Assembly (NCBI GenBank): GCA_902553005.1
Contig: CACDIK010000004.1
Span: 5,379 to 69,378, forward strand
Direction of reading: 5' to 3'
From: an uncultured Alphaproteobacteria bacterium
GTDB taxonomy: Bacteria > Pseudomonadota > Alphaproteobacteria > HIMB59 > GCA-002718135
DNA length: 64,000 nucleotides
Below the pieces are notes generated by a model. That model did no database searches and was not told the origin of the DNA. It saw nothing but the letters and a program-made list of their open reading frames with translations. This document shows positions 22,923 through 62,562 of this stretch, piece by piece; the first letter of the stretch is position 1, and every line of letters begins with the position of its first letter. The position numbers and the translations under genes are program-made.

Positions 22923-22925
22923 AAT

Positions 22926-23906: not shown

Positions 23907-23908
23907 TT

Positions 23909-27395: not shown

Positions 27396-27420
27396 TGAAA
27401 AAAAATTCTTTAATATTTTA

Positions 27421-27445
27421 GAAGAGCATAGAAATTATGCTCTTC
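27421..27445 (-). other. Perfect 10-bp stem / 5-nt loop hairpin between the SBP gene and the first permease gene
   Basis: gaagagcata-gaaat-tatgctcttc. No U-tract follows on the minus strand. This position is typical of intra-operon stem-loops that raise SBP:permease expression ratios. Confidence 0.5.
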
Positions 27446-27458
27446 ATATTATTTTATT

Positions 27459-29030
27459 TTAGTTAGCTTTTTTTACTAACATTACCTCAAAAGCTTCATC
27501 TGCTCTTGGGGTATAATCAACTTTATCAGTTGTTCCTACTGTCACAAACTGTGAATGAAGTGGAATTGCACCTTGATCTTCAGCAATGAGAATTTCCATT
27601 GCTCTCTTAAGGTGGCCTTCATATTCTTGCATATCAAAAGCTGCAGATGCTTTTTCTACTTCAGCATCAAATGCAGTATTTGAGTAACCTCCAGCATTCC
27701 AACTACCATAACCTTCCTCTTTAGTATGGAAAGCAGCACTTAATGACATTAGTGAAGAACCAGTAAAAGCATTGTCCCATCCAATCATAGACAAGCTAAA
27801 TTCCTGTTTATTTAATCTTCCAAAATAAACTGCCTTTGGCATTGTCTCAACTTGCATTTTCAAACCAATTTTTGAGAGCATTTGAGCAATAGCTTGAGCT
27901 ATCTTATCATCATTTACATAACGATCGTTAGGGGCATGGACTGTTAAACCAAAACCATCGGCATACCCAGCTTCAGCCATTAACTCTTTAGCTTTATTTA
28001 TATTGAATTCGTTTTCAGGAATATTTTCACTATAACTAAAAAATCCTTTAGGAACAACTTGATTTGCCTCTTCAGCCAATCCATCCATAACTTTAGAAAC
28101 AATTGCATCTCTATCAATTGCTAAAGAGAGTGCTTTTCTTACTCTTTTATCTTTTAATGGGTTAACTGACATCGCATTCCCATCATTATCAGTAACAAAT
28201 GGTGAGTTGTCATTTTGTGTATCTACGTACAACCACAAAGTCCTTGCGCTTGCTCTTTTGGCAACTTTAAATCCATCTTTAGACTCAACAGCTGGAACAG
28301 ATGAAGGTGATAATCCCTCAAGAATGTCAACGTCACCAGCTAAGAGAGCGGCTACTCTAGAAGCTCCATCAGGCATTATTTTAAAAGTTACATCATTAAA
28401 ATCAGGTTTCACACCCCAATAATTATTATTGACTGTAATTTGATAATTGTCTCCAGGTGTATAGCTTTTAAATTTGTATGGACCTGTTCCAATAGCTACT
28501 TTTCCAGAAGCAAAATCCTCAGTTGTTGATCCCTCAACGTTACTTTTTGAAACTATTGCAACACCAGAAAGTCTCCTTAAAAGTAATGGATAAGGATTTT
28601 TAGTCTTAACAACTAAAGTATGACTATCAGTTGCTTCAACTGACTCAATCATACTAACATTTGATTCATAACTTGCAGGGTTATTAGGGATGTTTGGTAT
28701 TCTGTCTATAGAAAAAATAACATCATCGGCGGTAAAATCACTTCCATCGTGAAACTTAACTCCTTTTCTTAAATTAAATTTCCAAGTTAGATCATCTAAA
28801 TTTTCCCATGACTCTGCTAGACGAGCAACTATGTTTGCATTTTCATCTCTGTCAATTAATCTTTCAAAAATATATCTTGAGTAAGCAGCATTTGGTCCAA
28901 GATACAACCAATGTGGATCAACGGAAGGATCATGCGGTGTCGCGACCGTCAAATTCTCACTTAGTACTGATTTACTTAAAAAAATAATTGAAGCAAAAAT
29001 GATTAAAGTTTTAAAAAAATTTTTTATCAT
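27459..29030 (-). CDS. ABC transporter substrate-binding protein, family 5 (peptide/nickel/opine type)
   Basis: 523 aa. Signal peptide, plus family-5 SBP patterns (...WKFNLRKGVKFHDGSDFTADDV...). Confidence 0.85.
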   Translation of the reverse strand: MIKNFFKTLIIFASIIFLSKSVLSENLTVATPHDPSVDPHWLYLGPNAAYSRYIFERLIDRDENANIVARLAESWENLDDLTWKFNLRKGVKFHDGSDFTADDVIFSIDRIPNIPNNPASYESNVSMIESVEATDSHTLVVKTKNPYPLLLRRLSGVAIVSKSNVEGSTTEDFASGKVAIGTGPYKFKSYTPGDNYQITVNNNYWGVKPDFNDVTFKIMPDGASRVAALLAGDVDILEGLSPSSVPAVESKDGFKVAKRASARTLWLYVDTQNDNSPFVTDNDGNAMSVNPLKDKRVRKALSLAIDRDAIVSKVMDGLAEEANQVVPKGFFSYSENIPENEFNINKAKELMAEAGYADGFGLTVHAPNDRYVNDDKIAQAIAQMLSKIGLKMQVETMPKAVYFGRLNKQEFSLSMIGWDNAFTGSSLMSLSAAFHTKEEGYGSWNAGGYSNTAFDAEVEKASAAFDMQEYEGHLKRAMEILIAEDQGAIPLHSQFVTVGTTDKVDYTPRADEAFEVMLVKKAN

Positions 29031-29098
29031 ATATCCTCCATAAATATATCTTAATTAAGCATTCAAATTTTATTATGTCAAATTTTATTAATTAAATT

Positions 29099-30445
29099 TC
29101 AAAGTTTGAAATAATCTTTAATTTGATATGCAAAATAAACAAATTTTAAGTATATTTTACGAAGACCAGAAACTGGGATTTTTTTTGGCAAACCTTTATA
29201 AACTTTGGAAATATTCATATTTCCAAAATTAGAACCGTAGATTATTTTTGAAAGTTGCATTCCAGACCATGGTGCTGAACTGACGCCATTTGCATGGTAT
29301 CCAAAACTATAGAAGATATTTTCATCTTTAATTTTTCCAATGGAGGGCGCCAGTTTTGATGTAAATGCAACAAGTCCTCGCCAAGTAAAATCAATATTAA
29401 TATTACCCCATTCAGGAAAAACATATTTAAAATCTCTTTCGATAATTTTAGAAATATTTTTGTGAGATTTATCACTGCCGTCAGTATCACCTCTTGCGCC
29501 AAATAAAATTCTATTGTCTGGTAACTTTCGATAATAATATAAAAGATTACGTGTATTAACTATTGGCGAAAATGTTTTAAAATTATGTAATGAAAGTTCT
29601 TTATTCGATAATGGTTTAGTTACAATAATATTTGAAATAATTGGAAGTATTCTAGAGTCTATTTGTTTGATTAAACCGTCTTGATAGAAACCATTTGTAG
29701 CAATTACAATTTTTTTTGTCTTAATTTTTTTATTATTTGCTTTAGCAATATAGAAATTTGATTTTTTTATCACAGATGTTATTTTTGTTTTATGAAAAAT
29801 ATTAACTTTATTTTTTAAAGCAGCTTTTAAAAGACCTAAATAAAATTTTAATGGGTTCAATGCAAATCCAGGCTTATAAGATAACGCTCCAAATTGTTCC
29901 TTACCAGAGTGTCCAATATTATTAAATTGCTCTTTATTAAAAATTTCAGATTCTATTTCAAATAATTTATTATAAATTTCGCTCTCCTTTATTAATTTGT
30001 CAAACTTAGATTCAGTATGTGCTAAAACGTAATTTTGGTTGCCCGAAATATCACAATTAATATTATATTTATCAATTAGACTTTTAGTGTAGTTTGTTCC
30101 TTCAATACAATTCTTAAAAAAAGATATTGTTTCTTCTTTACCATATTTTTTCATTAATTGATTTATTGTGAGTTTGGTTGGAGGTATACAACAAAAACCA
30201 GCATTTCTTGTTGAGGCACCCCAGCCTATGATACCTGCATCAACTATACATATTTTTAGATTATATTTATCAGATAAATTTATTGCACATGATAATCCAG
30301 TGTAACCTGCGCCAACAATTAAAATATCAAATTCCTCATTTTGACTGATAGTTTCTAAATTTGAAAATTCACCATGATTATTATCCTGTGCAAACCAATA
30401 TGACTTAGGCAAATCATTAAAATTATATATGTCATTATGATACAT
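29099..30445 (-). CDS. FAD-dependent oxidoreductase (DAO family)
   Basis: 448 aa. Dinucleotide-binding motif ILIVGAGYTGLSCA about 40 aa from the N-terminus. Length and layout match gamma-glutamylputrescine/amine/opine-oxidase-like DAO enzymes. Confidence 0.8.
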   Translation of the reverse strand: MYHNDIYNFNDLPKSYWFAQDNNHGEFSNLETISQNEEFDILIVGAGYTGLSCAINLSDKYNLKICIVDAGIIGWGASTRNAGFCCIPPTKLTINQLMKKYGKEETISFFKNCIEGTNYTKSLIDKYNINCDISGNQNYVLAHTESKFDKLIKESEIYNKLFEIESEIFNKEQFNNIGHSGKEQFGALSYKPGFALNPLKFYLGLLKAALKNKVNIFHKTKITSVIKKSNFYIAKANNKKIKTKKIVIATNGFYQDGLIKQIDSRILPIISNIIVTKPLSNKELSLHNFKTFSPIVNTRNLLYYYRKLPDNRILFGARGDTDGSDKSHKNISKIIERDFKYVFPEWGNINIDFTWRGLVAFTSKLAPSIGKIKDENIFYSFGYHANGVSSAPWSGMQLSKIIYGSNFGNMNISKVYKGLPKKIPVSGLRKIYLKFVYFAYQIKDYFKL

Positions 30446-47528: not shown

Positions 47529-48599
47529 ATGAAGAAAAATCAGATCATTTTAGGCGATTCCATTAAGGAAATGAAAAAACTAAAAGATCATTCTGTTGAT
47601 CTTATTTTTGCTGACCCACCTTACAATCTTCAATTAAAAGATACATTATACAGACCTGATCAAACAACCGTCGAAGCTGTTACACAAGATTGGGATAAAT
47701 TTAGTACGTATAAAGAATATGATCAATTTACCAATGCGTGGCTTAGTGAATGCAAAAGAGTGTTAAAAAAAGGTGGAGCTCTTTGGGTGATAGGTAGTTA
47801 TCATAATATTTTACGAGTTGGTTCTACGATCCAAGATGAAGGCTTATGGATTTTAAATGATATTATTTGGCATAAAACAAATCCCATGCCAAACTTTCGC
47901 GGTACACGTTTCACAAATGCGCATGAAACGCTGTTATGGTGCACAACATCAAGAGAAGCAAAATACACATTTAACTATCAAAATCTCAAAGAACTAAATG
48001 AAGGAAAACAAATGCGCAGTGACTGGTATATTCCTATTTGTTCAGGCAAAGAAAGATTACGTAAAGATAACAATCAACGATCGCATCCAACACAAAAACC
48101 AGAAGCGCTACTCTACCGAATTCTCTTAGCCTCAACAAACAAAGGTGATCTTGTTCTTGATCCATTTTCAGGAAGTGGAACAACTGCTGTTGTTGCAAAA
48201 AAATTACAGCGTAACTTTATTGGCATAGAAAAAGATAAAGATTACGTTAAACTTTCAAAAGAAAGATTAAAGAAAACCAAAGTATTAAAAGAAGATGTTG
48301 TCACTATTGCAAAAAGTAGAAAAGAATTACCAAAAGTTCCTTTTGGTGAATTAGTCGAACAAGGAATTATTCCACCCGGTGCCGTATTAACAGATAAAAA
48401 AGAACGCTTTAAAGCAACAGTTAGTATTGATGGAACTCTTAAAATAAAAGATTTAACAGGTTCTATTCATCAAATGGGAGCAAAAATACAAGGACTACCA
48501 AGTTGCAATGGATGGGATTTTTGGCATATGAAAAACAAATCCAAATCTATCCTTCTAGATGAAATACGATCTAACTACCGTAAAGATAAACTAAATTAA
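47529..48599 (+). CDS. ccrM: CcrM-type N6-adenine DNA methyltransferase (beta class, GANTC-type by homology)
   Basis: 356 aa. Motif IV DPPY near the N-terminus (IFADPPYNL). Motif I follows (DPFSGSGTT). It has the about 80-aa C-terminal extension characteristic of alphaproteobacterial CcrM. No cognate restriction gene is present. Confidence 0.85.
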
Positions 48600-49915
48600 T
48601 CTATAATAATTCTAGGCTCAAAAGGGTGAAGTTTTTCTAAACGCTCAACTGACCAAAGATTATCTTCCGTGACTTGGTTTAAAGAATACATTCCCTCCAC
48701 ATCGCCGTTAATATCAAAATCTAGCGATCCAGAAACACCTTCATAATTAATTTCAACACCGCGAAGTAGTAAAGCTCTTGCAGCTTCCCAACTACCAGGC
48801 CCCATTTTAATTCCTGGTGGATTAGCAACACTTACTAAACTTTTAGATAAATCTTCCTTAGAAATATTATTATGTGCCTGATGCTGTAGTGCCAAAGCTG
48901 CTAACATCATTGTATCAAAACTAATAGCGGAATAAGGAGAATTAGGATTAACGCCTGCGTTCAACATTATATTTGCGTATGTTTGAAATTCTTCTGAACT
49001 TTGCGAAGTTGCTTGGGCAACAATAGTTGTATTTTTATTTAATTGAATAGGAATATAGGAATAGATTAAATCTTTCACTTCATTCGTCAGCATACTATCA
49101 GAACCGTAATGATGTTTAAAAATGCCTGAAGTTTCTAGTTCTTGTAATCTACTTAAAACAGTATTGGTAAATTGTTCAAGTAAATTAACTGTTCGTTCAT
49201 TTCCGTGAAGGAACATGACTAAACCTGGTTGATTATTGTCTATAGCAATATCAACAAATGTATTTATGAAGTTTTGATTGATCAGTGTCTTATCTGTCAG
49301 TAAAGTATTGAATAACACTATACCTTCTTGTTCGGTATAAACTTTTAAAAAATTTTGAGCCAGTGTAGAGTTATAATTATCATCACCGTAAAGAAGAATT
49401 ATTTCTCTAATATTTTTAGATAGAAGATAATTAGCAATAGATGTTGATTGTTGAATATCAGATGGAATAGTTCTAAAAAATAAATCATTATCTTCAATTG
49501 TTGAAAGTAACGGGTAACTAGCAGAAGATGAGATTGTTAAAATATTGTCTGGAATAGTTGCTTGTTCAATAACTTTAACAGCACTTGTTGAACACGTCGG
49601 ACCTAAAAGGATTTCTGGATCATTATTTTTTAAATAGGCATTTAAACTATCTTCTGTTTTAATAGGATCACATCCTGTATCAATAGAATCTACGGATATA
49701 AGACCTCGTCCTACTATACCAATCCCATCCGCATTAATGGTTTCTACAGCAACTCTTTTTGCTTCAGCAATTGCTTCAGCAATTTCACTAACAGGACCAC
49801 TTTCTGCATAAAGAGCAGCAATTTTTACTTCTGCACTCACAAAGGTTGAGTAAAAAAATATGATCTTCAAGATAATTATCGTAAATATTTTCATTATGTG
49901 AGATGTTTTTATCAT
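48596..49915 (-). CDS. Type-I periplasmic binding protein (LivK/ANF-receptor-like), orphan
   Basis: 439 aa. Signal peptide, then [12 protein letters not shown]..., DTGCDP, LGPTCS and FFRTIPSD, motifs of the branched-chain amino acid/amide-binding PBP fold. It begins 6 nt after tpsB. No ABC permease or ATPase gene is nearby. Confidence 0.75.
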
Positions 49916-49921
49916 AAATTT

Positions 49922-51604
49922 TTAAAATGAAAATGTGGCATTGAGTAAATAGACTGGTCTGGAAGTAGTTCCCTCAACACTTTTATCAGCTTCTGCTACT
50001 TCAAAACTAATATCAAGACTATTAGAGTTAAGAGGAATTTTTAATTTAACACCGTATCCTCCACTCACCACTTCTGTTCGGCTAAACTCACCTGAGGCTG
50101 GTCGTTTATAGTAGGTAGCACCAACACCAAGATGGATATATGGTTCAATACGTATAGACTCTTCCCTTTTATCTTCTTCTCCTTCTAAAAAAGGATAAAA
50201 AGGTCTGCTCAATTCTGTTCGCAGAAAAAAACCTTGATCACCAGACATATTACCTGATTCATAACCAGACATTTGTCCTGGTCCTGTTATATTCATTTGT
50301 TCTGAGATAATTAAACCTCTATCGCTAACAAGTTTTTGAAAAACAAAACGTGTGTTCAATAAATAATCTCTAAATATTTGCCTATTCAAATTAATATCAC
50401 TATTCCATTTTATAAAATTTAAAGTGGAGCCAACACGGGATAATGTTTTTGTATCTGATGTTTTATTTGTATACATAGGAGTACCAAACTTTAAAGCTGA
50501 GCTAGCTTTAAGCGAGAAAGAATCTAAAAAAGATAAGTTAGTAGTTGTATATTTTAACTCTAGAGCATTGTACTCATCGTAAAAGTTATCTTCTGTGATG
50601 TTAGGTAGTATTGAATAATCTCTTCCTTTAATCCATTGCCAATCTAATGAAAGATTATTTTTTATAAGCCTTGTATTTTTTATTTGATATTCAAGACCAA
50701 AGTTGATTTGTTTGGATTCCCCTTTTTTTTCTAGTCCGTTAGGTTCTGAATAAGATTCATTAACAGCACCAAAAAAGGAAAAGTCTGAGGCAAAAATTGG
50801 AAGTTTACCACCAACAAGATAAGCTTCTCGAAAATCTGTTCGTTTAATTATTTCTGTATCATCAATTGGTACATTAACACTATTTTCAGGATCTAAGACG
50901 TAGGCTGCATAAATATTTTCACCGTAACCAAAAGGACTGTTAAAACTTAAATAAGAAGTAAACTGATCTTTTCCTGCTGTTTCTGATAATCCATTTGAGT
51001 AAGTAAAATAACCATTTACTAATTTATGTTCAGCATTTAGTTTTAGTGAAGAAGTCCCAGGCTCCTCTCCTGCCTTAATTGTTGTTTCTAATTCAACACC
51101 TGGTAATTCTCGTGATTTAATGATCGATTTTTCAATGACGGGATATTCTAATCCTTTAATACCAATAAGTTTTTCAAAATATTTTTTAATTGGTTTAGAA
51201 ATACGTTTATCTAGTTGTGAGTAATCAATTGTTTCAATTTTACCAGGGAAAACAATGGCTTTTACCTTAGTATTTTGTTCAATCGTTTGAGGCGGAACAA
51301 TAAAACGTGTTAAAAAATATCCATTTAAAACATACAGTTGTTCTAATGCAATCAATAAATTATAAAAATCTTTTAATGTTATTGTTTTAAAAATTTTTGA
51401 TTTAAATAAATTTTTACGAAGCTCAATCATTTCTTCGATTTCATTTTCAATTTCAATACCAACAAAATTAAATGAAATATTTTCTGCACCAGGTGGAATA
51501 ACTAAACCTGTTTCATAAACAATATAATTACCAGTATTAGTAAAAACAGGATATGTCATAAATGAAGTAGAGATAAAAAAGATAAAAGATAAAAAATATC
51601 TCAT
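49922..51604 (-). CDS. Two-partner secretion outer-membrane transporter (TpsB; ShlB/FhaC/HecB family)
   Basis: 560 aa. Signal peptide, a POTRA-like N-terminal region and a beta-barrel with alternating hydrophobic pattern ending in a C-terminal Phe (...LLNATFSF). Its start codon directly abuts the stop of the upstream TpsA gene. Confidence 0.85.
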   Translation of the reverse strand: MRYFLSFIFFISTSFMTYPVFTNTGNYIVYETGLVIPPGAENISFNFVGIEIENEIEEMIELRKNLFKSKIFKTITLKDFYNLLIALEQLYVLNGYFLTRFIVPPQTIEQNTKVKAIVFPGKIETIDYSQLDKRISKPIKKYFEKLIGIKGLEYPVIEKSIIKSRELPGVELETTIKAGEEPGTSSLKLNAEHKLVNGYFTYSNGLSETAGKDQFTSYLSFNSPFGYGENIYAAYVLDPENSVNVPIDDTEIIKRTDFREAYLVGGKLPIFASDFSFFGAVNESYSEPNGLEKKGESKQINFGLEYQIKNTRLIKNNLSLDWQWIKGRDYSILPNITEDNFYDEYNALELKYTTTNLSFLDSFSLKASSALKFGTPMYTNKTSDTKTLSRVGSTLNFIKWNSDINLNRQIFRDYLLNTRFVFQKLVSDRGLIISEQMNITGPGQMSGYESGNMSGDQGFFLRTELSRPFYPFLEGEEDKREESIRIEPYIHLGVGATYYKRPASGEFSRTEVVSGGYGVKLKIPLNSNSLDISFEVAEADKSVEGTTSRPVYLLNATFSF

Positions 51605-54600
51605 TTATAACCTTTGGATACTAATTGCGTCTACCTGAGGAAAAGACGTAATGAATTCATTTTGAATTAAAGCAGCGTTAGACGCACCATCAACGGAGAT
51701 AAAAGAAATTATTCGAGATACATCATCGAAAACATCTTTATTGATTTTTTCCCGTACTACAATTTTTTCTTTTTCTTCATCTGGTGCTACGCCTGGAAGA
51801 GGTGGTGTCGAAGCCCCAGCTAAAATATTTGCTGTTGGTATTGTTTCTAATGCACCAGAATTTTCATTTATTGTAATTGGACTTGATGTAAAACCAGATA
51901 ATTCATAATTTATTGTAACATCTTTATCATTGCCAACATCTGCATCTGCAAAACTGCCAGAAGAACTAATAGAAAGATCAGAACCTGATAAGTTTAAACC
52001 CGATATAGTGCCACCACTTGTAGTGGCCGTCGTAGTTCCATCATATGTTTTATCATTTGCCGAAGCACCTGACACTGTAAAGTTAGCTGACATTAAAGAT
52101 CCAGTTGTAGCCGTAACAGTTGAAAGATCAATATTTCCCATGCTAGCATTTGTTAATGTGCCTCCATCTAAAAGTTGTATATTGAGATCTTCAGCCGTCA
52201 AACTTACTGAACTAGCTACTACATCACCTGCTCCCGCATCTCTATCGCTATCAGAGACACTATTATCATTTGAATCACTTGCAATAATTTCTAAATTAGA
52301 TGCGGTGTTAATATTGCTATTAATGTTTACATCTCTTCCTGCATGAAGGTTAAGACTACCCGTGCCAGTGACAGTAATGGCAGAACTAATAGTGATGTCA
52401 GTATTAGCTTGAAGAGTAACATCAACACCGTTATTCAGAAATTCTTCTAATTCTGTTTTATTAATTACGATATCATCACTTGCATAATCTGTATAAGATG
52501 TATTACCTCGGATAATTGTATCTGACCATAAAGATATATCGCCAGTATTATCACCCGCATCGCTTGCACCATCACCTTTAGCACTTCCTGCAACCATTAA
52601 GGTACCAGTATCATCTAGAGCAATATAATTTGGAAATGTGTCAGCATCTGCTAAAGTTGCTGTAGAAGTATCAAGTTCATTCGTACCTGTTTTACCAAAA
52701 CCAATCGTATATTGTAAACTTGCACCAGTTAGAGAAGTATCTTCAAAACCAAATAAATAAATATCATCTTCAGCAAAATCTCCTATTGCTATTCTATTAC
52801 CATCACCATCAACAGCAACTTGAGCCGCCCCCCAACCAGATATTCCTGAAGTATCATAATTTTTACCTCCAGTGTAATTATTCCCCATGGAAGCTTCATA
52901 TGTGGCACCAGTGAAATTTGAGTCACTAAAAGTAAACAAGTGTACTGCTCCATAATCATCATTGGTATCATTTGTTGTATTATATCCATCATCTTTAGTT
53001 GAGCTTACCGCTAAGATCTTCCCATCTGCTGTTAAACCAAGGGAGTTTCCAAATTGATCATTATTGCTTAATATATCAAGTCCGTTATCACCTAAGTCCA
53101 AACTCTTTGTTAAAGTATTTGTAGGGGCATAATCTATTCCTATTGTTCCAACATGAGTTGGGTTGTTAAAATCAGTTGATGGGTTTCCATCACTATTTGT
53201 TGTTTGATCAAATGTGATTAAGTAAACTGCTCCAGCATTACTATGACCTCCATTTGCTCCATCATCTTTCATTGCTCCAACTGCAAGACGTGATCCATCA
53301 TCAGTCAAAGATAATGAAGTAAAACTATCACCAGAACCAAGAGTACCAATTGATAAATCATAACTAGATGAATTATAAGTATGTCCGATTGTTCCTACGT
53401 GTGTTGGATTAGTAAAATTTGTATCATCAAATTTTATTGTGAACACTGAGCCACTATCAACCCCGCCTGATGTTGCATCAAGTTGTGATAAAACTAATCT
53501 ATCCCCATCACCATCTAAGGCAGTTCTCCAAATATAGTCACCAGAAGTTAAATCATCTAAATCTAAACTATAAGTTCCTGTGTAACCTTTTCCAATTGTT
53601 CCTACGTGTGTTGGATTTTGAAATGCAGAATCATCATCAAAGGTAAATAAAAAAACAGCACCAGAATCTGATGAATTATTACCTGCACCATCAACTCTAG
53701 AAGCAACTATAGCCATTCTATTACCATCACTGTCTAAGGCTGTTCCTTGACCAAACCTATCATCATCATCAAGATCAATATCAAGAGAACTACCACCTGT
53801 ACTTCCATAACCAAATCCAACTTTTCCGTACAAACTTCCACCAGTAAAGTCATTATCATTAAATTTAATGAGCATAACTTCACCACTATTAGATTTTGAA
53901 TTATTATTTCCATCTGCCATCATTCCTGACATTACAAGTCGATTACCTGTTTCATTCAAATCTATACCTTCACCAAATTTATCACCATTATTTAATGAAC
54001 TTCCAAGATCCAAATCTTTTGATCCTGTATAACCATTACCAATTGTTCCAATGTAGGTTGCGGATGCAAGATTATCAGTTAGAGTATATAAATTTACGGC
54101 TCCTGTTCTAACTTTGCTTTCACCAGATACAGATTGATCCCAGTAGCCAACAGCTAATCGATCTGCATCTTTATCAAACGCAACAGAGTTTCCAAATCGA
54201 TCTCCATTAGACAGGGTTACAGCATGAACACTTGAGTCACTTGTATCAAGATAATCATAATCTTGTCCGATAGAGCCAACATAGGTTGGCGTACCTGTAG
54301 CAGCAGAAACAACGCTTCCACTATTCATGAACTTAAATAATCTTACAACACCCGAATTATTTTTATTATTATTTTTACCGTTATCTCCTGTAGATCCAAT
54401 AGCAAGAAGAGAGCCATCATGATTAAAAGAAACCGCTGAACCTAATTCATCATCTTTTTTTGGAGTTAAATCAGTATGACTATTTGTGTCAAAATCATTT
54501 GAAATTACAGCACACTTATTGGTTTTCGCACAATTACTATTAGTGCTTAAATTTTGATAACCATTGCCAATTCGTGATACAACTTCACCGTTAGAAAAAT

Positions 54601-56920
54601 CTGTATCATCAAAAGCAATTATAAATACTCCACCAACCTTAGATATGTCATAACTATTCCTATATTGCTTAAATCCATCATCACCTCTCAGACCAACAGC
54701 CAAAACATTTGCATCACCATCTAATGCTACGCTCGAACCAAATAAATCATAAGATTTTACAGTTACACCTTTTTTAGTAACTCCCTGTCTAAACAAATTT
54801 ACATTCTTGGAGCCGGTATAACCACCTCCTATTCTTCCAACAATTTCACCACCTGAGTAAGAAGTATCATCAAAAGTTATTAAATAAACTGCACCAGTTT
54901 CATCTGAACCATTGTTTGCTGCATCATCACCAGTTGCTCCAACCGCTAATCTAGTACCGGTACTATTAAAAGATAAGGAGCGACCAAACTTGTCATTTTT
55001 TTGAAGATATGAATTGTCTATATCCTTTGCTCCAACGTATCCTTTTCCTATACGCCCTATAAGTGTTGCATTAGTAAAATTGCCGTCATCAAATTGGTAC
55101 AAATATACCACTCCTGTTTTTGTATTATTTTGTGCTCCACCTTCTCTAGCACCCACAGCCATTAAAGTTGCATCATCACTGATTGCTATATCAGATCCAA
55201 AATTTCCACCTCTAGTTAGTTTAGGTTCCCCGACATTGGTTGATGATACAACGGCATAATCCTTTCCAATTAAGCCTTTATGAACCCAGTTTTGAGACGT
55301 TACACTAGTTCCAACAGTAATATTTTTTGGATCAAGTAATAATTGGCCACCCTCTGATATATTGACTTTTGATAATCCAACATGTCGTAATGTGTCTTTG
55401 GAGGAAATTTCAACAGCACCACCTATTATACCTGTTGCATCAATATTACCAAGCATAGTCGTTTCTAGATCACTCCAAATGATTGCTGTACCTGCATCGC
55501 CATTAGAAGAGGAAATATCAATATTCGATCCATCTGATATTAAAATAGTTTTTGCGTTAACAAGTGATCTTCTTTTACCCCACCTATCAATAAAAAGATC
55601 TTGTTGTTGGGTAGATCTGGTTAAATTATTATTACCTTGAAATTCTCCCCCAATACGAACTAACCCTCCATGGGTATTACCTGCTACATTAATATCAGTA
55701 GATAATAAACGAATGTAACCTTCAGACTCAATATCAATGAAACCACCTTGTTGACTGCCATTTGAAGACATAGAACCTGAAGACATAATGTTTGGTGCTG
55801 ATACTAGAATATTACCACCCTTAGTATGTCCTAATGTATTAATTTCACTGCCATGACTTTGAATAATTTTATAATCAGATTGAATATTAATTTTACCACC
55901 AGCATTAGTAGAGGAAGAAGCATTTAGAGTTCCACCTAAAGATATTTCACCTGTACTATTAAAATTTATTGTTCCTGCATTTGCACCTGACACATCAACT
56001 TTACCACCAAAAGATAAAAAATTACCTTCTGCGTTAATTTTACCATTTTCTTTGGCTGTTAAATTTCCTGCAACGACAATATCACCTGCACCCCCAAGGG
56101 TAATGACGCCATTTTTTTGTGAGGCAGTTGTTGCAACAAGATTACCTGGAATATTGACAGCGCGCTGAACAACATTTTTAGCAGCGCCAACATCAATATC
56201 TATTCTATTTGCCGTTGATGTTCCTGCATGATTAATAATGGTATTTAATTCTTCTGCATTTTGATCAAGTAACGTTATCGCTTCACTAAATGGAACGCTT
56301 ACTTGTAAAAATTTATCACCACTCAAGTCTAACGTAATTTCTTTTCCAGCCCCTATTCCAATTTTACCAAGGTTCGCATTAACCGTACCTTCATTATCAA
56401 TGGCACCACCTAAAAGAGCAGTAAAACCTCCATCCAAAGTAGTAATAGAACCTTTATGAATAATAGAAGAAAAAATATTATTTACATTATCTGCTTTAAA
56501 TAAAAATTTATTATTGAGAAAATCATCATTGGATAAAGCCAACGTCGATGCAGCAAAGGAATGCGCATTGATTGTTGCTGTTGACGTAAAGTAAACACCG
56601 TTTTCATTCACCACAAAAACTTTACCGTTGGCATTTAATGCACCAGCTAGTGTTGTAGGATTTCCAGAGACAACTCTATTTAGAGCACTTGCATTAATAG
56701 AAGGTTGATTGAAGGTTACACTATTTTGCGCGCCAATATCAAAACTCGTCCACTCAATAATTGATTGTTCGGAAGACTGGGTAATCGTCATGGAGTTTTG
56801 TGATGAAGTGATCGAAATATCACCGGAGATAACATTTTCCCCACTTGGAAGAGAGGCAGCGTAAACAAATTGTGTTTCTAAAAAGAGAAAAGTGAGAAGA
56901 AAAATAAAAGCATTTTTCAT
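51605..56920 (-). CDS. Giant TpsA exoprotein 1 (filamentous-haemagglutinin-type TPS domain, FG-GAP-like repeat core, YDG-type C-terminal module)
   Basis: 1771 aa. Signal peptide MKNAFIFLLTFLFLETQFVYA. The TPS domain carries ...FNQPSINASALNRVVSGNPTTLAGALNANGKVFVVNENGVYFT..., matching the NPNL/NPNGI-type motifs. Beta-helix-like G/N/S-rich repeats run to about aa 545 (..LLLDPKNITV). About 13-14 FG-GAP-like units follow. The C-terminus contains KTYDGTTTA. Confidence 0.85.
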   Translation of the reverse strand: MKNAFIFLLTFLFLETQFVYAASLPSGENVISGDISITSSQNSMTITQSSEQSIIEWTSFDIGAQNSVTFNQPSINASALNRVVSGNPTTLAGALNANGKVFVVNENGVYFTSTATINAHSFAASTLALSNDDFLNNKFLFKADNVNNIFSSIIHKGSITTLDGGFTALLGGAIDNEGTVNANLGKIGIGAGKEITLDLSGDKFLQVSVPFSEAITLLDQNAEELNTIINHAGTSTANRIDIDVGAAKNVVQRAVNIPGNLVATTASQKNGVITLGGAGDIVVAGNLTAKENGKINAEGNFLSFGGKVDVSGANAGTINFNSTGEISLGGTLNASSSTNAGGKINIQSDYKIIQSHGSEINTLGHTKGGNILVSAPNIMSSGSMSSNGSQQGGFIDIESEGYIRLLSTDINVAGNTHGGLVRIGGEFQGNNNLTRSTQQQDLFIDRWGKRRSLVNAKTILISDGSNIDISSSNGDAGTAIIWSDLETTMLGNIDATGIIGGAVEISSKDTLRHVGLSKVNISEGGQLLLDPKNITVGTSVTSQNWVHKGLIGKDYAVVSSTNVGEPKLTRGGNFGSDIAISDDATLMAVGAREGGAQNNTKTGVVYLYQFDDGNFTNATLIGRIGKGYVGAKDIDNSYLQKNDKFGRSLSFNSTGTRLAVGATGDDAANNGSDETGAVYLITFDDTSYSGGEIVGRIGGGYTGSKNVNLFRQGVTKKGVTVKSYDLFGSSVALDGDANVLAVGLRGDDGFKQYRNSYDISKVGGVFIIAFDDTDFSNGEVVSRIGNGYQNLSTNSNCAKTNKCAVISNDFDTNSHTDLTPKKDDELGSAVSFNHDGSLLAIGSTGDNGKNNNKNNSGVVRLFKFMNSGSVVSAATGTPTYVGSIGQDYDYLDTSDSSVHAVTLSNGDRFGNSVAFDKDADRLAVGYWDQSVSGESKVRTGAVNLYTLTDNLASATYIGTIGNGYTGSKDLDLGSSLNNGDKFGEGIDLNETGNRLVMSGMMADGNNNSKSNSGEVMLIKFNDNDFTGGSLYGKVGFGYGSTGGSSLDIDLDDDDRFGQGTALDSDGNRMAIVASRVDGAGNNSSDSGAVFLFTFDDDSAFQNPTHVGTIGKGYTGTYSLDLDDLTSGDYIWRTALDGDGDRLVLSQLDATSGGVDSGSVFTIKFDDTNFTNPTHVGTIGHTYNSSSYDLSIGTLGSGDSFTSLSLTDDGSRLAVGAMKDDGANGGHSNAGAVYLITFDQTTNSDGNPSTDFNNPTHVGTIGIDYAPTNTLTKSLDLGDNGLDILSNNDQFGNSLGLTADGKILAVSSTKDDGYNTTNDTNDDYGAVHLFTFSDSNFTGATYEASMGNNYTGGKNYDTSGISGWGAAQVAVDGDGNRIAIGDFAEDDIYLFGFEDTSLTGASLQYTIGFGKTGTNELDTSTATLADADTFPNYIALDDTGTLMVAGSAKGDGASDAGDNTGDISLWSDTIIRGNTSYTDYASDDIVINKTELEEFLNNGVDVTLQANTDITISSAITVTGTGSLNLHAGRDVNINSNINTASNLEIIASDSNDNSVSDSDRDAGAGDVVASSVSLTAEDLNIQLLDGGTLTNASMGNIDLSTVTATTGSLMSANFTVSGASANDKTYDGTTTATTSGGTISGLNLSGSDLSISSSGSFADADVGNDKDVTINYELSGFTSSPITINENSGALETIPTANILAGASTPPLPGVAPDEEKEKIVVREKINKDVFDDVSRIISFISVDGASNAALIQNEFITSFPQVDAISIQRL
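52541..55213 (-). repeat. Array of about 13-14 degenerate 60-90-aa FG-GAP-like repeats inside TpsA-1 (coding repeats)
   Basis: Recurrent unit: ..D.FG.S(V/L)A(L/F)..DG..LAVGA..DDG.....(S/T)GAVYL(F/I)TFDD..F(T/S)N(P/A)T.VG(T/R)IG.GYTG... It spans about aa 570-1460. The repeats are protein-level, not exact DNA tandem repeats. Confidence 0.6.
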
Positions 56921-56926
56921 AAATGC

Positions 56927-59900
56927 TTATAGACTTTGAATACCTAAACCTTCAGTATTTGGAGCAGATTGTATGTTGGCTTCTCTTGCTAATTGAAGGG
57001 ACATAGTGGAGCCAACTATAGCGTCTACAGATACGAAAGGAACAATTTTATTAATATCTCCAATCATATTTTCCACAGTGTCTCTTTGATCTCTACTAGT
57101 CACTGCGGCAATATTATTACCTTCTGAAGAATTATTTGAATTGCTACTTGATGAACTGCTAGAACTAGCTTCAGTGATTGCAGCGGTGACACTCTCGTTA
57201 ATAGCAGTGCTACTTGTATCTGTTACATCCATAGCACTACTTAAATAGCCACTAAGATCATAATCCACTGTTGCATCTTTTGCAGATCCAGCAGTTGACG
57301 ATGTAAAACTTGCTGTATTCACCACTGATAGATCACTACCAACTAACGTTAATCCTGAAACAGAACCAGTAGTGGAAACAGTCGCCGAGGTATTACCATC
57401 ATAGGTTTTATCACTAACGCCAGCTCCTGACGCACTAAAGTTGGCTGATTGTAGTGTTCCTGTTGTAGCCGTAATAGTAGCAAGTTCAATATCCCCCATA
57501 CTAGCATTTGTAATACCGCTTCCATTATTAAGTGTAATATCCAAATCACTCGCCGTTAAACTAATCGCTGTCGTCCCATCACTTTCGTAGGCTGCTAAAA
57601 TATCACCGGTTCCGCTATCACGCTGGGCACTCACTACATTATTACTTGATGTGTCACTCGCAATAATAGCTAAATTACCAGAAGTACTAATCGACTTATT
57701 AATATCAACATCACGTCCAGCATGCAGACTTAATGTTCCTGTACCAGTTGTTGTAATGGCTGAGTTAACAGTAATATCACTATTTGCTTGCAACGTCACA
57801 TTCACATTTGCATCAAGAAGATTTTTTAATTCTGTTGTATTAATAATCACATCATCGCTTGACGAGTCCGTATACGAATACCCCCCTGATAAAATATTTT
57901 CTTTCAGTAAAAGTGCACCACCAAGACCATAACCAGTGTTGCTATTATTGTAACCCAAATCCATTGGTGTACCTATAACTAACATTTTACCTGTATCGTC
58001 CATGGACATTGCCCCTCCTGCGTATTGGGTTTGATAATAATCAGTATTACCACTAATTCTTGATTTAAAAGTACCATTTGGAGTTATTGTTTGCTTTATT
58101 TCAGGGTTCCCAAAACTAGAATCTGAAAAACCAATTAGATGCAGTCTACTATCATCAGATCCACGACCACCTACAGCTAAACGGGTACCGTCCCCACTTA
58201 ATGCTATGGTGACATGATGCACTTTTTCTGTCCAATAATTAGTATATGAAGATGCACTGTTATATCCACCAGATACTACATGACCCCAATCAAAAGTTTC
58301 TGGGAGTATTTTACTATTATTATATAGATATCCTGAATTGCCCGAATAACAACTTTGTGTTGCCTGACAAGTAATACTGCTATCATTTTCTGATGTAATT
58401 GCCCCTACATAAGTTGGTGTAAGAAAATTACTATCAGCAAAGGTGAAAAGATGAATGGCATTCTGCGACTTGCTTGCGGTATTTACCACAGATCCCGATG
58501 TCGTAACTACAGAATTACATACACTTCCAGCGTTAGCATAAGAATTTGAACAATTAGCATAATTATGGAGAACGACCAACTTTGTTGCATCATTTGATAA
58601 TTCTATATCCCAACCAAAATAAGATCCACTAGCTCGCCACATTATTCGATTATTTTCAATTGGTGCATCATAGCCAATATCTAAACTATGGGAGCCAGTG
58701 AGATCTATACCTTGCATATAACCAGTATTACCCTTACCAATTCTTCCCGTAAATGATGGCGAAGAGAAGTTTGTATCACTGAACGAAATTAAGTTTATTC
58801 CTTCACGTTGTTGAGCATTTGTTTCCATAGTAAAATCTTGGTAAGTTAGCGCCAAGCGTGAACCATCTGCATTAAGTGCAACGTCTACGTGATGACCCCA
58901 TGAACTAGTAAATTCAGATTCTCCAGCGTACATATCAAGATCATTCGAAGTAAGTGGGATATCAAAACTAGAAAATCTAGTTCCTATTATGCCAACATGT
59001 TGGGGGTTAGAAAAATTGGTATCATCAAATTTTACTGTTCTTACACCGGGTATAGAGAGAGCGGTGCCTACCGTGTAGTCATTAATAACTGAATTTCTTC
59101 TTATCGCGTCAAAAGAATAAACTAAACGGTCGCCGTCTTGATCAAGTGCAACGTTACGCATATACATACCTGACGTATCAAGATCATTACTACCGCTTGC
59201 CCCATTATATAACTGTCCTCTTAATGTTGCATTACTAAAATCCGTATCATCAAAGGTAAAAAGTAAAATTCTACCTGTTTGACGTGGACAACCCCAACCA
59301 CAATGAGTGGGTATCTGTACTGATGCTATAGCTAAATTTTTTCCATTACCACTTAATGCAACACTAGATCCAATTCTTGTGGTTGTATCAGAATAAACAA
59401 TAGTACCACCTAAACTACCCTCACTACTATTTAAATCATAGTCCTTACTGCCGGTATAATCAAAACCAATCACGCCTTGTAAAGACCAACTTTGAGATCC
59501 AGCAGTATCACTGATGGTAATATTTTTGGGATCAAGAAGAAGATGACCACCCTCTACCATCTTGATATTTTGTAAACCTAAATAACGAAGAGTATCTTTT
59601 GATGAAATTTCTACTGAACCTCCTTGAAGTCCCATTGCATTAATATGCCCTAACATGGTTGTCTCTTGATCACTCCACAAAATTAGTGTGCCAGGTGTAT
59701 GATCTGATTCAATATTGAGGGTTGATCCATCATTAATAAAAAGTGTGTTAACATTTTCCATTGTTGGTACATTTCCCCACCTTGTTACAAATGTTTCTTC
59801 TTGCTCATTTGTTCTAGTGAGATCATATCCTCCTTGAAAGGCACCCCCTATGCGCACAAGCCCTCCTTGTTGTGATCCTGAGGCAGTAATATCCGATGAT

Positions 59901-61144
59901 AGAAGTCGAATAGAATTTGTTCCTTCTATATCAATGCGACCACCCTTAGCCGTACTCCCATTTGATGACAGTGTACCTGAGGAAATAATCCTATTACCTG
60001 ATAATTCTATTGATCCTCCATTTGTGCCATTAGCGGAAATAAGACTTTTATCCATTTGCATGATAGAGGGTGATGTAAGTTCTATTACACCACCAGTATT
60101 GTTTTGAGAGTCAGCTAGAATAGATCCAGAAACAATAAGTTCTCCTTTACTCGTAATTGTAATGCTCCCAGGTAAATCATCTGATACATCTATTGTTCCA
60201 CCAAGAGAAAGAGTATCACTGGTAATATTAATGTCCCCTGTTGACGTTGCTTTGAGAGATCCATCAATTTTAATAGTTCCACTTCCTGATAAAATAATTT
60301 TCCCATTTTGTTGTTCAGCTTTATTTGCAATCAAAGAGCCAGGAATATTAATTGCATTCGATAAAATATTTTTAGCTGTTCCAACATCTAACTCTATAGT
60401 GTTTCCCTTTGTTGAGCCACTATGACTGATTAAGGAGTCAAGTGTATTGCCTTCATTATCAACAACTGTTGATGCTGTATCAAGGGGAACTGCTACTTGT
60501 AAAAATTTGTCTCCACTTAAGTCTAGTGCGATTTCTTTTCCAGCGCCAAGACCAACTTTTCCAAGGTTTGCATTAATGGTACCTTCGTTATTGATCGCAC
60601 CACCTAGTAGTGCAGTGAAACCTCCATCCAAAGTTGTTATCGATCCTTTATTGATAACAGATTTCAATGACGATTGATTTGAAGAACTAAAAGAAAAAAT
60701 ATTATTGAGAAAATTATCATTGGAGAGAGCAAGCGTGGAGGCAGCAAAAGAATGCGCATTAATTGTAGATGTTGGTGTAAAATAGACACCGTTTTCATTG
60801 ACAACATATACCTTACCATTCGCATTCAAAGATCCTGCCAGTGTGGTAGGATTGCCGGAGATAACTCTATTAAGTGCACTAGAACTTGATGATGGTTGAT
60901 TAAAGGTAACGGTATTATTTTCTCCGATATTAAAACTATTCCATTCAATAATGGCTTGATCCGATTGTTGCTGTATCGTCATCGACTGATCATTGGAAGT
61001 AATAGTAATATCACCTGCAATAGTTGCATTACCACTTGGCAGCTCAGCCAATACAAAGCAGGAATAAAAAATGGTTATAATTAAAGTAATAAAGACTCTC
61101 ATAATATTTTTACGAGGCCTTTTTTTTATAAGGGTTTTGACCAA
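56927..61144 (-). CDS. Giant TpsA exoprotein 2 (paralogue of TpsA-1)
   Basis: 1405 aa. The called TTG start is at 61144; an ATG at 61102 (MRVFITLIITIFYSCFVLA..) gives a more conventional signal peptide. The TPS domain (FNQPSSSSSALNRVISGNPTTLAGSLNANGKVYVVNENGVYFT) and the first about 540 aa are colinear with TpsA-1. The repeat core is more degenerate and Cys-containing. The C-terminal module is homologous to TpsA-1 (KTYDGNTSA). Confidence 0.85.
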   Translation of the reverse strand: MVKTLIKKRPRKNIMRVFITLIITIFYSCFVLAELPSGNATIAGDITITSNDQSMTIQQQSDQAIIEWNSFNIGENNTVTFNQPSSSSSALNRVISGNPTTLAGSLNANGKVYVVNENGVYFTPTSTINAHSFAASTLALSNDNFLNNIFSFSSSNQSSLKSVINKGSITTLDGGFTALLGGAINNEGTINANLGKVGLGAGKEIALDLSGDKFLQVAVPLDTASTVVDNEGNTLDSLISHSGSTKGNTIELDVGTAKNILSNAINIPGSLIANKAEQQNGKIILSGSGTIKIDGSLKATSTGDINITSDTLSLGGTIDVSDDLPGSITITSKGELIVSGSILADSQNNTGGVIELTSPSIMQMDKSLISANGTNGGSIELSGNRIISSGTLSSNGSTAKGGRIDIEGTNSIRLLSSDITASGSQQGGLVRIGGAFQGGYDLTRTNEQEETFVTRWGNVPTMENVNTLFINDGSTLNIESDHTPGTLILWSDQETTMLGHINAMGLQGGSVEISSKDTLRYLGLQNIKMVEGGHLLLDPKNITISDTAGSQSWSLQGVIGFDYTGSKDYDLNSSEGSLGGTIVYSDTTTRIGSSVALSGNGKNLAIASVQIPTHCGWGCPRQTGRILLFTFDDTDFSNATLRGQLYNGASGSNDLDTSGMYMRNVALDQDGDRLVYSFDAIRRNSVINDYTVGTALSIPGVRTVKFDDTNFSNPQHVGIIGTRFSSFDIPLTSNDLDMYAGESEFTSSWGHHVDVALNADGSRLALTYQDFTMETNAQQREGINLISFSDTNFSSPSFTGRIGKGNTGYMQGIDLTGSHSLDIGYDAPIENNRIMWRASGSYFGWDIELSNDATKLVVLHNYANCSNSYANAGSVCNSVVTTSGSVVNTASKSQNAIHLFTFADSNFLTPTYVGAITSENDSSITCQATQSCYSGNSGYLYNNSKILPETFDWGHVVSGGYNSASSYTNYWTEKVHHVTIALSGDGTRLAVGGRGSDDSRLHLIGFSDSSFGNPEIKQTITPNGTFKSRISGNTDYYQTQYAGGAMSMDDTGKMLVIGTPMDLGYNNSNTGYGLGGALLLKENILSGGYSYTDSSSDDVIINTTELKNLLDANVNVTLQANSDITVNSAITTTGTGTLSLHAGRDVDINKSISTSGNLAIIASDTSSNNVVSAQRDSGTGDILAAYESDGTTAISLTASDLDITLNNGSGITNASMGDIELATITATTGTLQSANFSASGAGVSDKTYDGNTSATVSTTGSVSGLTLVGSDLSVVNTASFTSSTAGSAKDATVDYDLSGYLSSAMDVTDTSSTAINESVTAAITEASSSSSSSSNSNNSSEGNNIAAVTSRDQRDTVENMIGDINKIVPFVSVDAIVGSTMSLQLAREANIQSAPNTEGLGIQSL
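57904..59467 (-). repeat. Degenerate FG-GAP-like repeat core of TpsA-2
   Basis: Units such as ..RIGSSVALSGNGKNLAIASV...GRILLFTFDDTDFSNATLRGQL.., ..RNVALDQDGDRLVYS...VKFDDTNFSNPQHVGIIG.. and ..HVDVALNADGSRLALT...INLISFSDTNFSSPSFTGRIGKG... They are fewer and more divergent than in TpsA-1. Confidence 0.45.
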
Positions 61145-61248
61145 CCTTAATTAAGATTTATTGTAGATCAAATTTAGTAAATATTTACAATTAAATTATA
61201 ACAGTATTTAAAGAAAAATAAAAATTATTGCATTATGTAGCTCTAGTC

Positions 61249-62562
61249 TTAGCTTATTCGTTGATAAATCCTACCCATATAAGAGAAAAGGGTCAACGCT
61301 CTTGCAATAAAGAAAATGCAAAGTGATAGCCATAAGCCTGTATTCCCAAAACTTGCTATTAAAAAGAAAGAGACAACAATATAGATGGCGACAGAGACGA
61401 TCATCGCATTACGCAGTTCAGTTGTTTGCGAGGCTCCAACAAAGATACCATCAAATTGAAAACAAAAAGAAGCCGCAAAAGGAATAATAATAATCCAGTA
61501 AGAATAAGAAAAGCTGATCTCTCGTATATTTGGTAAGTCTGTCATTGTAATAATGTAATAATTTTTGCTCAAGAAAAAGATGGCACAAATTATTAATCCT
61601 GTTGCCGTGCTTAAGATAAAGGAATTTTTTATCACATCATTTAATAACTGTCGGTTTTTTGATCCAATAGAGTATCCAACGATACCTTCGGTAGAAAAGG
61701 CATAGGCATCAAGAACATAAGCGGATAACATAATAAAATTAAGCAAAATGGTATTTGCCGCTACTGTTTCTTCGCTGATAGAATTACTAAGATAGGTAAA
61801 ATATAAAAAGGCAAAAGCAAGAAGAAGAGATCGGATAAATATATTAAGATTAATATTAAAAATATTTTTTACTTTACTAAGATTAAAAATTTTTTTTGAA
61901 TTAAATTCTAATTTGGTCATCTTGCTTAAAGCATAGAATGTATAAAATAAAAAGATTATTGTTGTCAGCGTTGAAGCGACGAGCGTTCCTAAGGCAACAC
62001 CTAAAACATTTAAATTAAAATATAAAACAAAGACTAAGCTTAAAATTATATTTGCAATAGAATAAAACCCGACAATAAGACTGGATGTTTTTGTTTTTTG
62101 TAAACCAATAAATAATCCTGTAATTACAAAAATTGTAAGCTCACCAAAAGAGGAGTAAATACGAAAGGTAAAATAATCTTTAAAATAAAGTTTTGTTTCC
62201 TGTGATAACTCAAAAATAGATAAGGAAATATTATATATGTATGTTTGAAGAATAATTAATAAGAGGGAAATAATAATAACAAGAGCAATATTACGTAAAA
62301 AAATATTTATGATTTCTTCATAATCTTTTGATCCATCTGCTTGAGCGATCATTCCAACGGTACCTGATCGTAAAAAACCAAAACTTCCAAAAAGAATGGA
62401 AAAGACACTTGCCGCAATACTTGTAGCAACCAAGTAACTTGCATTATCAAGATTACCCATTAAACCCGTATCAACAATAGCCACAAAAGGAATGACTAAA
62501 TTTGCAAAGAAAATAGGGATAGATAATTTAAAAATATTTTGAATGGATGACTTTGATGACAT
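61249..62562 (-). CDS. MATE-family multidrug/compound efflux transporter
   Basis: 437 aa, 12 predicted TM segments, with the N-terminal ...SIPIFFANLVIPFVAIVDTGLMG.. MatE pattern. It is co-oriented with, and 104 nt upstream of, tpsA-2. Confidence 0.85.
   Translation of the reverse strand: MSSKSSIQNIFKLSIPIFFANLVIPFVAIVDTGLMGNLDNASYLVATSIAASVFSILFGSFGFLRSGTVGMIAQADGSKDYEEIINIFLRNIALVIIISLLLIILQTYIYNISLSIFELSQETKLYFKDYFTFRIYSSFGELTIFVITGLFIGLQKTKTSSLIVGFYSIANIILSLVFVLYFNLNVLGVALGTLVASTLTTIIFLFYTFYALSKMTKLEFNSKKIFNLSKVKNIFNINLNIFIRSLLLAFAFLYFTYLSNSISEETVAANTILLNFIMLSAYVLDAYAFSTEGIVGYSIGSKNRQLLNDVIKNSFILSTATGLIICAIFFLSKNYYIITMTDLPNIREISFSYSYWIIIIPFAASFCFQFDGIFVGASQTTELRNAMIVSVAIYIVVSFFLIASFGNTGLWLSLCIFFIARALTLFSYMGRIYQRIS

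Follow-up and report, generated by a model that had tools for sequence, protein, structure and literature searches.

Background

What is the function of an operon in which two giant exported proteins, the transporter that would serve them and a periplasmic binding protein (PBP) are encoded side by side? This question is raised by a 64,000-nucleotide stretch of the genome of an uncultured alphaproteobacterium (GenBank assembly GCA_902553005.1, contig CACDIK010000004.1, positions 5,379 to 69,378 of the forward strand), which was analyzed as a whole and is called the window below. An initial annotation, made from the DNA letters and a list of open reading frames (ORFs), had described four co-oriented minus-strand genes here as a compact two-partner secretion (TPS) operon filling about a fifth of the window. 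The ORF coordinates were reproduced: tpsA1, tpsA2, tpsB and the PBP gene are separated by 6, 0 and 6 nt, and the operon spans 12.5 kb, or 19.6% of the window (Table 1).

Judged by its sequence, the locus is very likely a functional native TPS module that is neither a contact-dependent inhibition (CDI) system nor a cytolysin. With moderate confidence we further regard it as a chromosomal, vertically inherited type Vb module of the HIMB59/AEGEAN-169 bacteria with tpsA-tpsB-PBP as its conserved core. On balance we also favor the view that the TpsA proteins are surface-displayed binding proteins with an exposed, diversifying propeller head, that one TpsB serves both of them and that the PBP is functionally coupled to the system.

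Results

Architecture of the exoproteins and their transporter

Both TpsA proteins carry an N-terminal Sec signal peptide followed by a TPS domain and a beta-helix, in agreement with the signal peptide and secretion domain first noticed in the two large ORFs. Pfam analysis gave TPS (PF05860) at E = 2e-27 for TpsA1, and TPS (5e-25), FG-GAP_2 (PF14312, 5.5e-19) and YDG (PF18657, 7e-11) for TpsA2. NCBIfam recognized the filamentous-haemagglutinin N-terminal domain in both proteins (TIGR01901, 2.9e-20 for TpsA1 and 4e-19 for TpsA2). When the TPS domain of TpsA2 was compared with the sequences of solved structures in the PDB, the matches were EtpA (2.4e-41), HxuA (1.5e-26) and HMW1 (9e-25); a PDB sequence search with aa 561-1771 of the same protein returned no match. 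The product of tpsB, which adjoins tpsA2 with no gap, matched ShlB (2e-18) and POTRA_2 (2e-5) and has the C-terminus ...TFSF, so the proposed ShlB/FhaC-type transporter was recovered as well. All the profiles that had been suggested as a check on that annotation (TPS, ShlB, POTRA_2, FG-GAP and YDG) thus gave matches, and those to TPS and ShlB are significant.

TpsA1 and TpsA2 are 46% identical across aa 33-805, a region spanning the common LLLDPKNIT motif that also occurs in the TpsAs of outgroup bacteria. By segment, the identity between the two paralogues was highest in the TPS domain (66%), followed by a C-terminal module of about 250-300 aa common to both (55%), the beta-helix extension up to LLLDPKNIT (51%) and the center (32%). 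The paralogy first noticed up to the LLLDPKNIT motif therefore stood, and it also takes in the C-terminal module. In TpsA2 the FG-GAP (integrin-alpha-type) blades separate the N-terminal beta-helix, which ends at LLLDPKNIT, from a second beta-helix-like module (…VTLQANTDIT…LHAGRDVNIN…), after which the YDG domain follows. A custom blade hidden Markov model built from the regular repeats of an outgroup TpsA protein detected about 13 blades in TpsA2; the blades of TpsA1, a region below the Pfam threshold, gave only weak matches to it. For closed seven-bladed propellers, the numbers of blades would fit two in TpsA2 and one in TpsA1.

Variation of the TpsA center

The center of TpsA is the variable part of an otherwise conserved locus. 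In the closest relatives, identity to the window was 91-99% for the flanking genes, 90-99% for TpsB, 95-99% for the PBP and 65-97% for TpsA2; for TpsA1, compared with the alleles of upstream tpsA1-type genes in 13 loci from single-cell amplified genomes (SAGs), it was only 47-72%. Column identity among TpsA2 orthologues was 0.78-0.94 at aa 51-550, fell to 0.52-0.75 in the FG-GAP region (aa 551-1450) and was again 0.83-0.90 over most of aa 1500-1771. The ratio of nonsynonymous to synonymous substitution rates (dN/dS) in the center reached 0.22-0.37 when more divergent alleles were compared; it was 0.09-0.18 at both ends of TpsA, 0.02-0.07 in housekeeping neighbors and 0.03-0.07 in the PBP gene. 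Values below 0.4 everywhere mean purifying selection throughout, with weaker constraint in the center. In strain pairs with divergent tpsA2 alleles, dS in the center was about 1.1 versus 0.13-0.6 in the flanking genes, and the alleles therefore appear to be old ones swapped by recombination and not sequences diverging in place. These values indicate that the TpsA center is exchanged, as far as sequences can tell, by recombination between close strains while the copies stay intact. All ORFs of the locus were intact in about 30 related species representatives; disruption of the large ORFs in relatives, which would have spoken against the initial annotation, was thus not seen.

The number of tpsA genes per locus was one or two. 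Two were found in the 13 distinct SAG loci (L010-L019 and L035-L037), as in the window, and one in at least 17; in many one-copy loci the single tpsA directly follows the MatE gene. The tpsA2 type was present in every examined locus with a typeable tpsA except L039, L054 and L061, in which the tpsB-proximal tpsA is of the A1 type. Since TpsA1-type C-termini also sit next to tpsB in these other lineages, the TpsA1 and TpsA2 classes must be old.

The pattern resembles the 'replacement flexible genomic islands' described for marine bacteria (PMC4033161), in that divergent versions with the same function occupy a fixed chromosomal site and show apparent homologous recombination at conserved borders; all of these features were found at the locus. 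The difference is that the replaced unit here is the middle of a gene, with the 5' and 3' ends of that gene serving as the borders. The genomospecies reference genome AG-891-K05 has one metagenomic island 'with no determined function', reported without coordinates (PMC10734472), for which the hypervariable tpsA center may be a candidate.

A conserved C-terminal tail

In contrast to the variable center, the last ~55 residues are the most conserved segment of TpsA, and every tail ends in Q-x-L. The tail hardly varied among TpsA2 alleles with an overall identity of only 65-72%, and in lineages about 52% identical overall its similarity still clearly exceeded that of the remaining protein. A tail profile searched against 1.84 billion representative proteins gave 27 matches at E ≤ 1e-10. 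The only match below this threshold from outside the clade, the 5975-aa repeat protein P0271, was rejected as a low-complexity coincidence. The other 26 lie at the extreme C-terminus, and two longer ones that were inspected are TpsA fragments of the HIMB59 clade. Among the inspected matches, then, the Q-x-L tail is confined by sequence to the TpsAs of this clade. The hypervariable center, the varying number of tpsA genes and this tail had all escaped the initial annotation.

TpsA proteins are exported N-terminus first. Given this order of export, the simplest reading of a C-terminal module that is under strong constraint and follows a flexible linker is that it may act in the periplasm as a stopper or in interactions, with the end of the FhaB prodomain as its analogue. 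In Bordetella, the proline-rich region and the highly conserved extreme C-terminus of FhaB remain periplasmic, and maturation and release are under their control. The Pro/Ser-rich linker and invariant tail occupy the same position here and may be retained likewise. The FhaB prodomain is about 1200 aa long whereas the tail has about 55 aa, and no sequence similarity between FhaB and the TpsAs was detected outside the TPS fold.

The binding protein and its linkage to tpsB

The PBP has a Sec signal peptide that can be read directly from its sequence, and it matched ANF_receptor (6e-26) and Peripla_BP_6 (7e-16) in Pfam. An AlphaFold2 model based on a 71-sequence alignment reached a mean confidence score (pLDDT) of 90 and was used for the analysis; with a 13-sequence alignment the score was 52.7 and the model was unusable. 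Foldseek placed the model with LivJ/LivK (top hits 1z15, 2lbp and 3hut, probability 1.00; template-modeling (TM) scores up to 0.82) and with the Venus-flytrap domains of GABA-B and mGluR receptors, neighbors that bind amino acids. In a HMMER alignment, the LivK ligand contacts S79, A101, T102 and Y150 correspond to S109, A132, S133 and Y181 of the PBP, residues that vary little or not at all in the clade, and the PBP keeps the disulphide Cys pair of LivK. The fold model, its structural neighbors and the LivK-like contact residues suggest that the PBP is a real binding protein, whose ligand is probably an amino-acid-like small molecule.

The PBP is nevertheless not an ordinary LivJ or LivK. It shares their fold, an N-lobe sequence similarity at E = 4.8e-15 and several ligand-contact residues, but it is about 70-90 aa longer, scores 60.4 bits against a cut-off of 477 on the NCBIfam LivJ model PRK15404, lacks neighboring LivHMGF genes and is encoded within a secretion operon. 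No ATP-binding cassette (ABC) permease (BPD_transp_2) or ATPase genes were found within 10 kb of it in any locus examined. Its nearest relatives outside the clade (23-27% identity, Rhodobacterales) head canonical operons of a binding protein, two ATPases and two permeases.

The PBP gene lies directly 3' of tpsB in all SAG loci. The sole partial case is L039, a frameshifted contig of a metagenome-assembled genome that ends inside the PBP gene and therefore gave a partial, fragmented match. In metagenome loci the PBP gene follows tpsB in all 11 that extend past tpsB, at TpsB identities of 49-98%. Overall the adjacency spans 49-99% TpsB identity with gaps of 6-27 nt, and it is kept across at least four downstream contexts (CcrM, ThuA/GFO, PdxA/TctCBA and an unannotated gene). 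The inclusion of the PBP in the operon, as first annotated, is thus strongly supported by synteny, which holds in every locus that extends far enough. Because the adjacency persists across these identities and contexts with no permease nearby, the linkage pattern argues for selection on the tpsB-PBP adjacency.

Host and origin of the locus

Many marine metagenomes, as well as GORG-Tropics single-cell genomes, contained near-identical copies of the PBP. For six such single-cell genomes, Table S1 of PMC10734472 gives the classification order HIMB59, family GCA-002718135, genus AG-337-I02; it also assigns five of the six to genomospecies GCA002718135-1.A, with an estimated genome size of 1.6-1.75 Mb, and the GC content of the six is about 29% (PMC10734472). 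The host is therefore HIMB59/AEGEAN-169, the former SAR11 subclade V, and not the Pelagibacterales proper, as the wording of the initial annotation had implied.

In about 30 GTDB species representatives the locus was found at the same chromosomal site, between MatE and the genes for a CcrM-like methylase, RNase HII and SLT. The overall GC content of the tpsA genes is 0.36-0.38, while their GC at third codon positions (GC3) of 0.17-0.22 equals that of the neighboring genes; the raised overall value arises because Gly/Ser/Thr/Ala-rich proteins lift codon positions 1 and 2. Recent horizontal transfer was considered in view of the raised GC and was rejected because of GC3 and the conserved synteny. 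No integrase or transposase was found among the flanking genes scanned, as the initial annotation had said. By these sequence measures the locus is native and vertically inherited.

Discussion

Proposed mode of action and points against it

In Bordetella, one TpsB (FhaC) can serve paralogous TpsAs. In the model we favor, TpsB would likewise export both TpsAs, given the 66% identity of their TPS domains. The propellers would fold extracellularly, probably with Ca2+, to form a distal ligand-binding head, and this head would be under frequency-dependent selection, exerted for example by phage or grazers, or arising from different targets. The Pro/Ser-rich linker and the tail would leave the periplasm last and would probably remain there, either tethering the protein or controlling its release in the manner of the FhaB prodomain end. 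The PBP would act in the periplasm as a partner of the system that binds a small amino-acid-like molecule, and it would either couple uptake to the activity of the surface protein or control the display of that protein. The role in adhesion or ligand capture that was first proposed is likewise putative. A more specific version, in which the PBP is not a transport component but a periplasmic receptor for the Leu-terminated Q-x-L tail, or a small-molecule sensor acting on the tail or TpsB, and so gates tethering or release, is speculative and rather improbable.

Several observations weigh against this model. A clear D-x-D/N-G loop is present in only five TpsA2 blades. The L6 motif of TpsB (aa ~441-449) reads MSGY (...QMSGY) where (V/I)RG(Y/F) is canonical, and aligns to ...SVRGF of CdiB; this placement is based on a weak match of TpsB to CdiB (6wim) and on the alignment of the clade. 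The Arg of L6 is replaced by Ser in all TpsBs of the clade (xSG(Y/F)), whereas outgroup TpsBs keep the Arg, and the TpsA motif NPNG reads NENG in the clade (aa ~115-118), whereas outgroup relatives keep NPNG. With the L6 Arg lost and NPNG changed to NENG, the secretion pair is divergent, and canonical mechanistic details may not transfer to it. The L6 change is a deviation within the TPS family, not grounds for exclusion from it. The outgroup loci of P0106 and P0109 lack a PBP; there, tpsB-tpsA is followed by an IalB-like gene (PF06776), so the PBP is not intrinsic to the FG-GAP type of TpsA. Finally, as there is no room for a promoter of its own, the PBP gene may depend on the operon promoter, and its adjacency to tpsB could be passive.

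Alternative explanations

This last point leads to a simpler account, in which the TPS part is an ordinary adhesin and the PBP is an unrelated solute binder for an ABC importer encoded elsewhere, kept in place by the operon promoter in a gene-dense genome. The PBP keeps the family-wide conserved and amino-acid-binding residues, its nearest relatives are genuine ABC binding proteins, it evolves like a housekeeping gene and outgroup FG-GAP TpsA loci do without it, all of which would be expected from such an account. It explains less well why the adjacency to tpsB holds without exception over such a range of TpsB identity and in rearranged contexts, among loci extending far enough, why no permease or ATPase gene lies nearby in any locus, and why the protein is longer than LivJ/K and so far below the LivJ cut-off. 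We therefore consider this account possible but doubtful. A role in nutrient capture of the HxuCBA kind, in which TpsA binds a dissolved macromolecule or ligand and the PBP passes a small-molecule product to an importer, seems unlikely. The TPS domain does resemble that of HxuA, the third component is a binding protein of the high-affinity type and the system belongs to an oligotroph whose genome is streamlined. However, a Pfam scan found neither a hydrolase nor a release domain in the TpsAs, one would expect conservation and not hypervariability of a head that binds nutrients, and the locus encodes no outer-membrane receptor or permease. HxuCBA is similar in using a TPS exoprotein for ligand capture together with a third, transport-related gene; that gene encodes a TonB-dependent receptor and not a binding protein, and HxuA is conserved. 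No gene for a TonB-dependent receptor was found in our locus or its flanks.

Contact-dependent toxin delivery of the CdiA type, or a cytolysin of the ShlA/ExlA type, is very improbable. The general TPS architecture is common to these systems, and two tpsA genes with strain variability look superficially like CDI. However, a VENN or related motif was sought in the TpsAs and was absent, and conservation is highest at the C-terminus. The gene after tpsA is tpsB and not a small immunity gene, and the order is A-B and not B-A-I. The Pfam scan of the TpsAs found no toxin or haemolysin domain and no Fil_haemagg repeats, and neither CdiA nor ShlA nor HpmA was among the PDB sequence matches at E ≤ 0.01. 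The original view that the operon fits neither the CDI nor the ShlA/HpmA type is thus upheld, EtpA, HxuA and HMW1 having the closest solved TPS domains.

Comparison with known systems

EtpBAC of enterotoxigenic E. coli and HMW1ABC of Haemophilus influenzae come closest to the locus. They have the most similar TPS domain and N-terminal beta-helix, and they too are three-gene loci with a non-toxin exoprotein, a dedicated TpsB and one accessory gene. Their accessory gene encodes a cytoplasmic glycosyltransferase. No glycosyltransferase of the HMW1C/EtpC type was found in the operon, where the accessory gene encodes a Peripla_BP_6/ANF_receptor protein instead. In addition, their passengers lack FG-GAP propellers, and they belong to host-associated pathogens whereas the present host is free-living plankton. 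FhaC differs from the present TpsB in the L6 Arg, which the latter lacks.

The uncharacterized outgroup TPS-FG-GAP-MBG/YDG exoproteins P0106, P0108, P0109 and P0110 are 30-34% identical to TpsA2 over 75-91% of its length. They share with it the TPS domain, a beta-helix ending in LLDPKNIT, about 12-19 FG-GAP blades, the beta-helix module and then YDG/MBG, but they are 2300-2550 aa long, have many MBG repeats and lack the clade-specific tail. In two of the outgroup loci (L047:6256-16197 and L048:6280-16012), genes for a two-component sensor and regulator lie upstream of tpsB-tpsA-IalB, which may be another three-component TPS arrangement.

TPS as a kind of system and the individual domains are already known. 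Literature searches for FG-GAP with two-partner secretion, for TpsA/TpsB with binding proteins and for YDG/MBG domains found nothing relevant, and neither the two HIMB59/AEGEAN-169 genomics papers nor the South Pacific Gyre paper mentions the locus. A characterized family of the same architecture, which would have refuted the initial annotation, did not turn up in these searches. As far as the searchable literature goes, the FG-GAP-inserted TpsA subfamily, its clade-specific tail and its invariant coupling to an orphan PBP are new.

Gene calls and neighboring genes

The features of the operon are listed in Table 1. The true start of TpsA1 is probably the ATG at 61102, giving a protein of 1391 aa; its database homologues P0095 and P0099 begin with MRVFITL. 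For the PBP, the starts of database homologues point to the ATG at 49894 as the probable start, giving 432 aa. A promoter and terminator scan of 48300-61400 found sites no more numerous than in shuffled sequence, and an Rfam search of the whole window found no riboswitch or leader near the operon. Two minus-strand tRNA genes (19368-19441 and 20066-20137) were the sole Rfam matches in the window. A 138-aa ORF with a TTG start (51930-52346, plus strand) lies antisense within tpsA2 and is presumed spurious.

Table 1. Positions in the window of the operon genes, the TpsA segments and the converging methyltransferase gene
Feature	Position	Strand	Remarks
tpsA1	56927..61144	-	Maximal ORF 1405 aa, TTG start; shorter TPS exoprotein, accessory and highly variable copy
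TpsA1 TPS secretion domain, aa 36-298	60251..61039	-	Pfam and TIGR01901
TpsA1 variable center, aa ~546-1085	57890..59509	-	~7 degenerate FG-GAP-like blades, 7 Cys
TpsA1 conserved tail, ~55 aa	56930..57094	-	Behind poly-Ser/Asn linker; ends QSL
tpsA2	51605..56920	-	1771 aa; longer TPS exoprotein
TpsA2 TPS secretion domain, aa 24-282	56075..56851	-	Pfam; PDB sequence matches
TpsA2 beta-helix extension to LLLDPKNIT, aa 283-537	55310..56074	-	Also aligns to EtpA
TpsA2 hypervariable FG-GAP array, aa 548-1458	52547..55279	-	~13 blades of ~70 aa
TpsA2 YDG (Ig-like) domain, aa 1613-1676	51893..52084	-	PF18657; inside conserved C-terminal module, aa ~1471-1700
TpsA2 ultra-conserved tail, aa 1717-1771	51608..51772	-	Behind Pro-rich linker; ends QRL
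tpsB	49922..51604	-	560 aa; Omp85-family transporter, terminal Phe
PBP gene	48596..49915	-	439 aa; orphan LivK/LivJ-like type I periplasmic binding protein, Sec signal peptide
CcrM-type DNA methyltransferase (N6_N4_Mtase + RAMA)	47529-48599	+	Converges on operon; overlaps PBP gene by 4 nt (48596-48599)

Conservation of the CcrM-type methyltransferase is 93-99% within the genus and about 80% in lineages further away. Between it and the PBP gene, the gene content differs among strains. A fifth co-oriented gene overlaps the PBP stop codon in 19 loci and encodes a 182-aa exported protein of the histidine phosphatase family (His_Phos_1, E = 1.9e-7), and some strains carry, ahead of ccrM, a 138-aa ORF, a rhodanese gene or both (for example L014:11313-12697 and L010:11313-11861). 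The window has none of these three at the 3' end of the operon, which is a small indel hotspot.

Elsewhere in the window, the minus-strand region 20194-30445 encodes a Dpp/Opp-type ABC transporter (SBP_bac_5, two permeases and a fused ATPase) together with an M19 membrane dipeptidase, a GMC oxidoreductase, a mandelate-racemase-family enzyme and a DAO-family oxidoreductase. This cluster looks like a unit for the uptake and catabolism of peptides or amino compounds.

Conclusions

Cells of HIMB59/AEGEAN-169 are abundant in oligotrophic surface oceans and make up as many as 6% of cells in the South Pacific Gyre (PMC11366302). These streamlined free-living bacteria devote about 0.75% of the genome to one or two exported proteins and keep them intact in every strain, which points to an important function at the cell surface. 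The swapping of exposed centers fits a surface under pressure from phage or grazers, and the strict coupling to an orphan PBP offers a testable way into the question of how surface and periplasmic ligand binding are linked in such cells. If the PBP does act as a receptor or gate for the TpsA tail, the locus would represent a three-component class of TPS in which a binding protein controls surface display in abundant, streamlined ocean bacteria.

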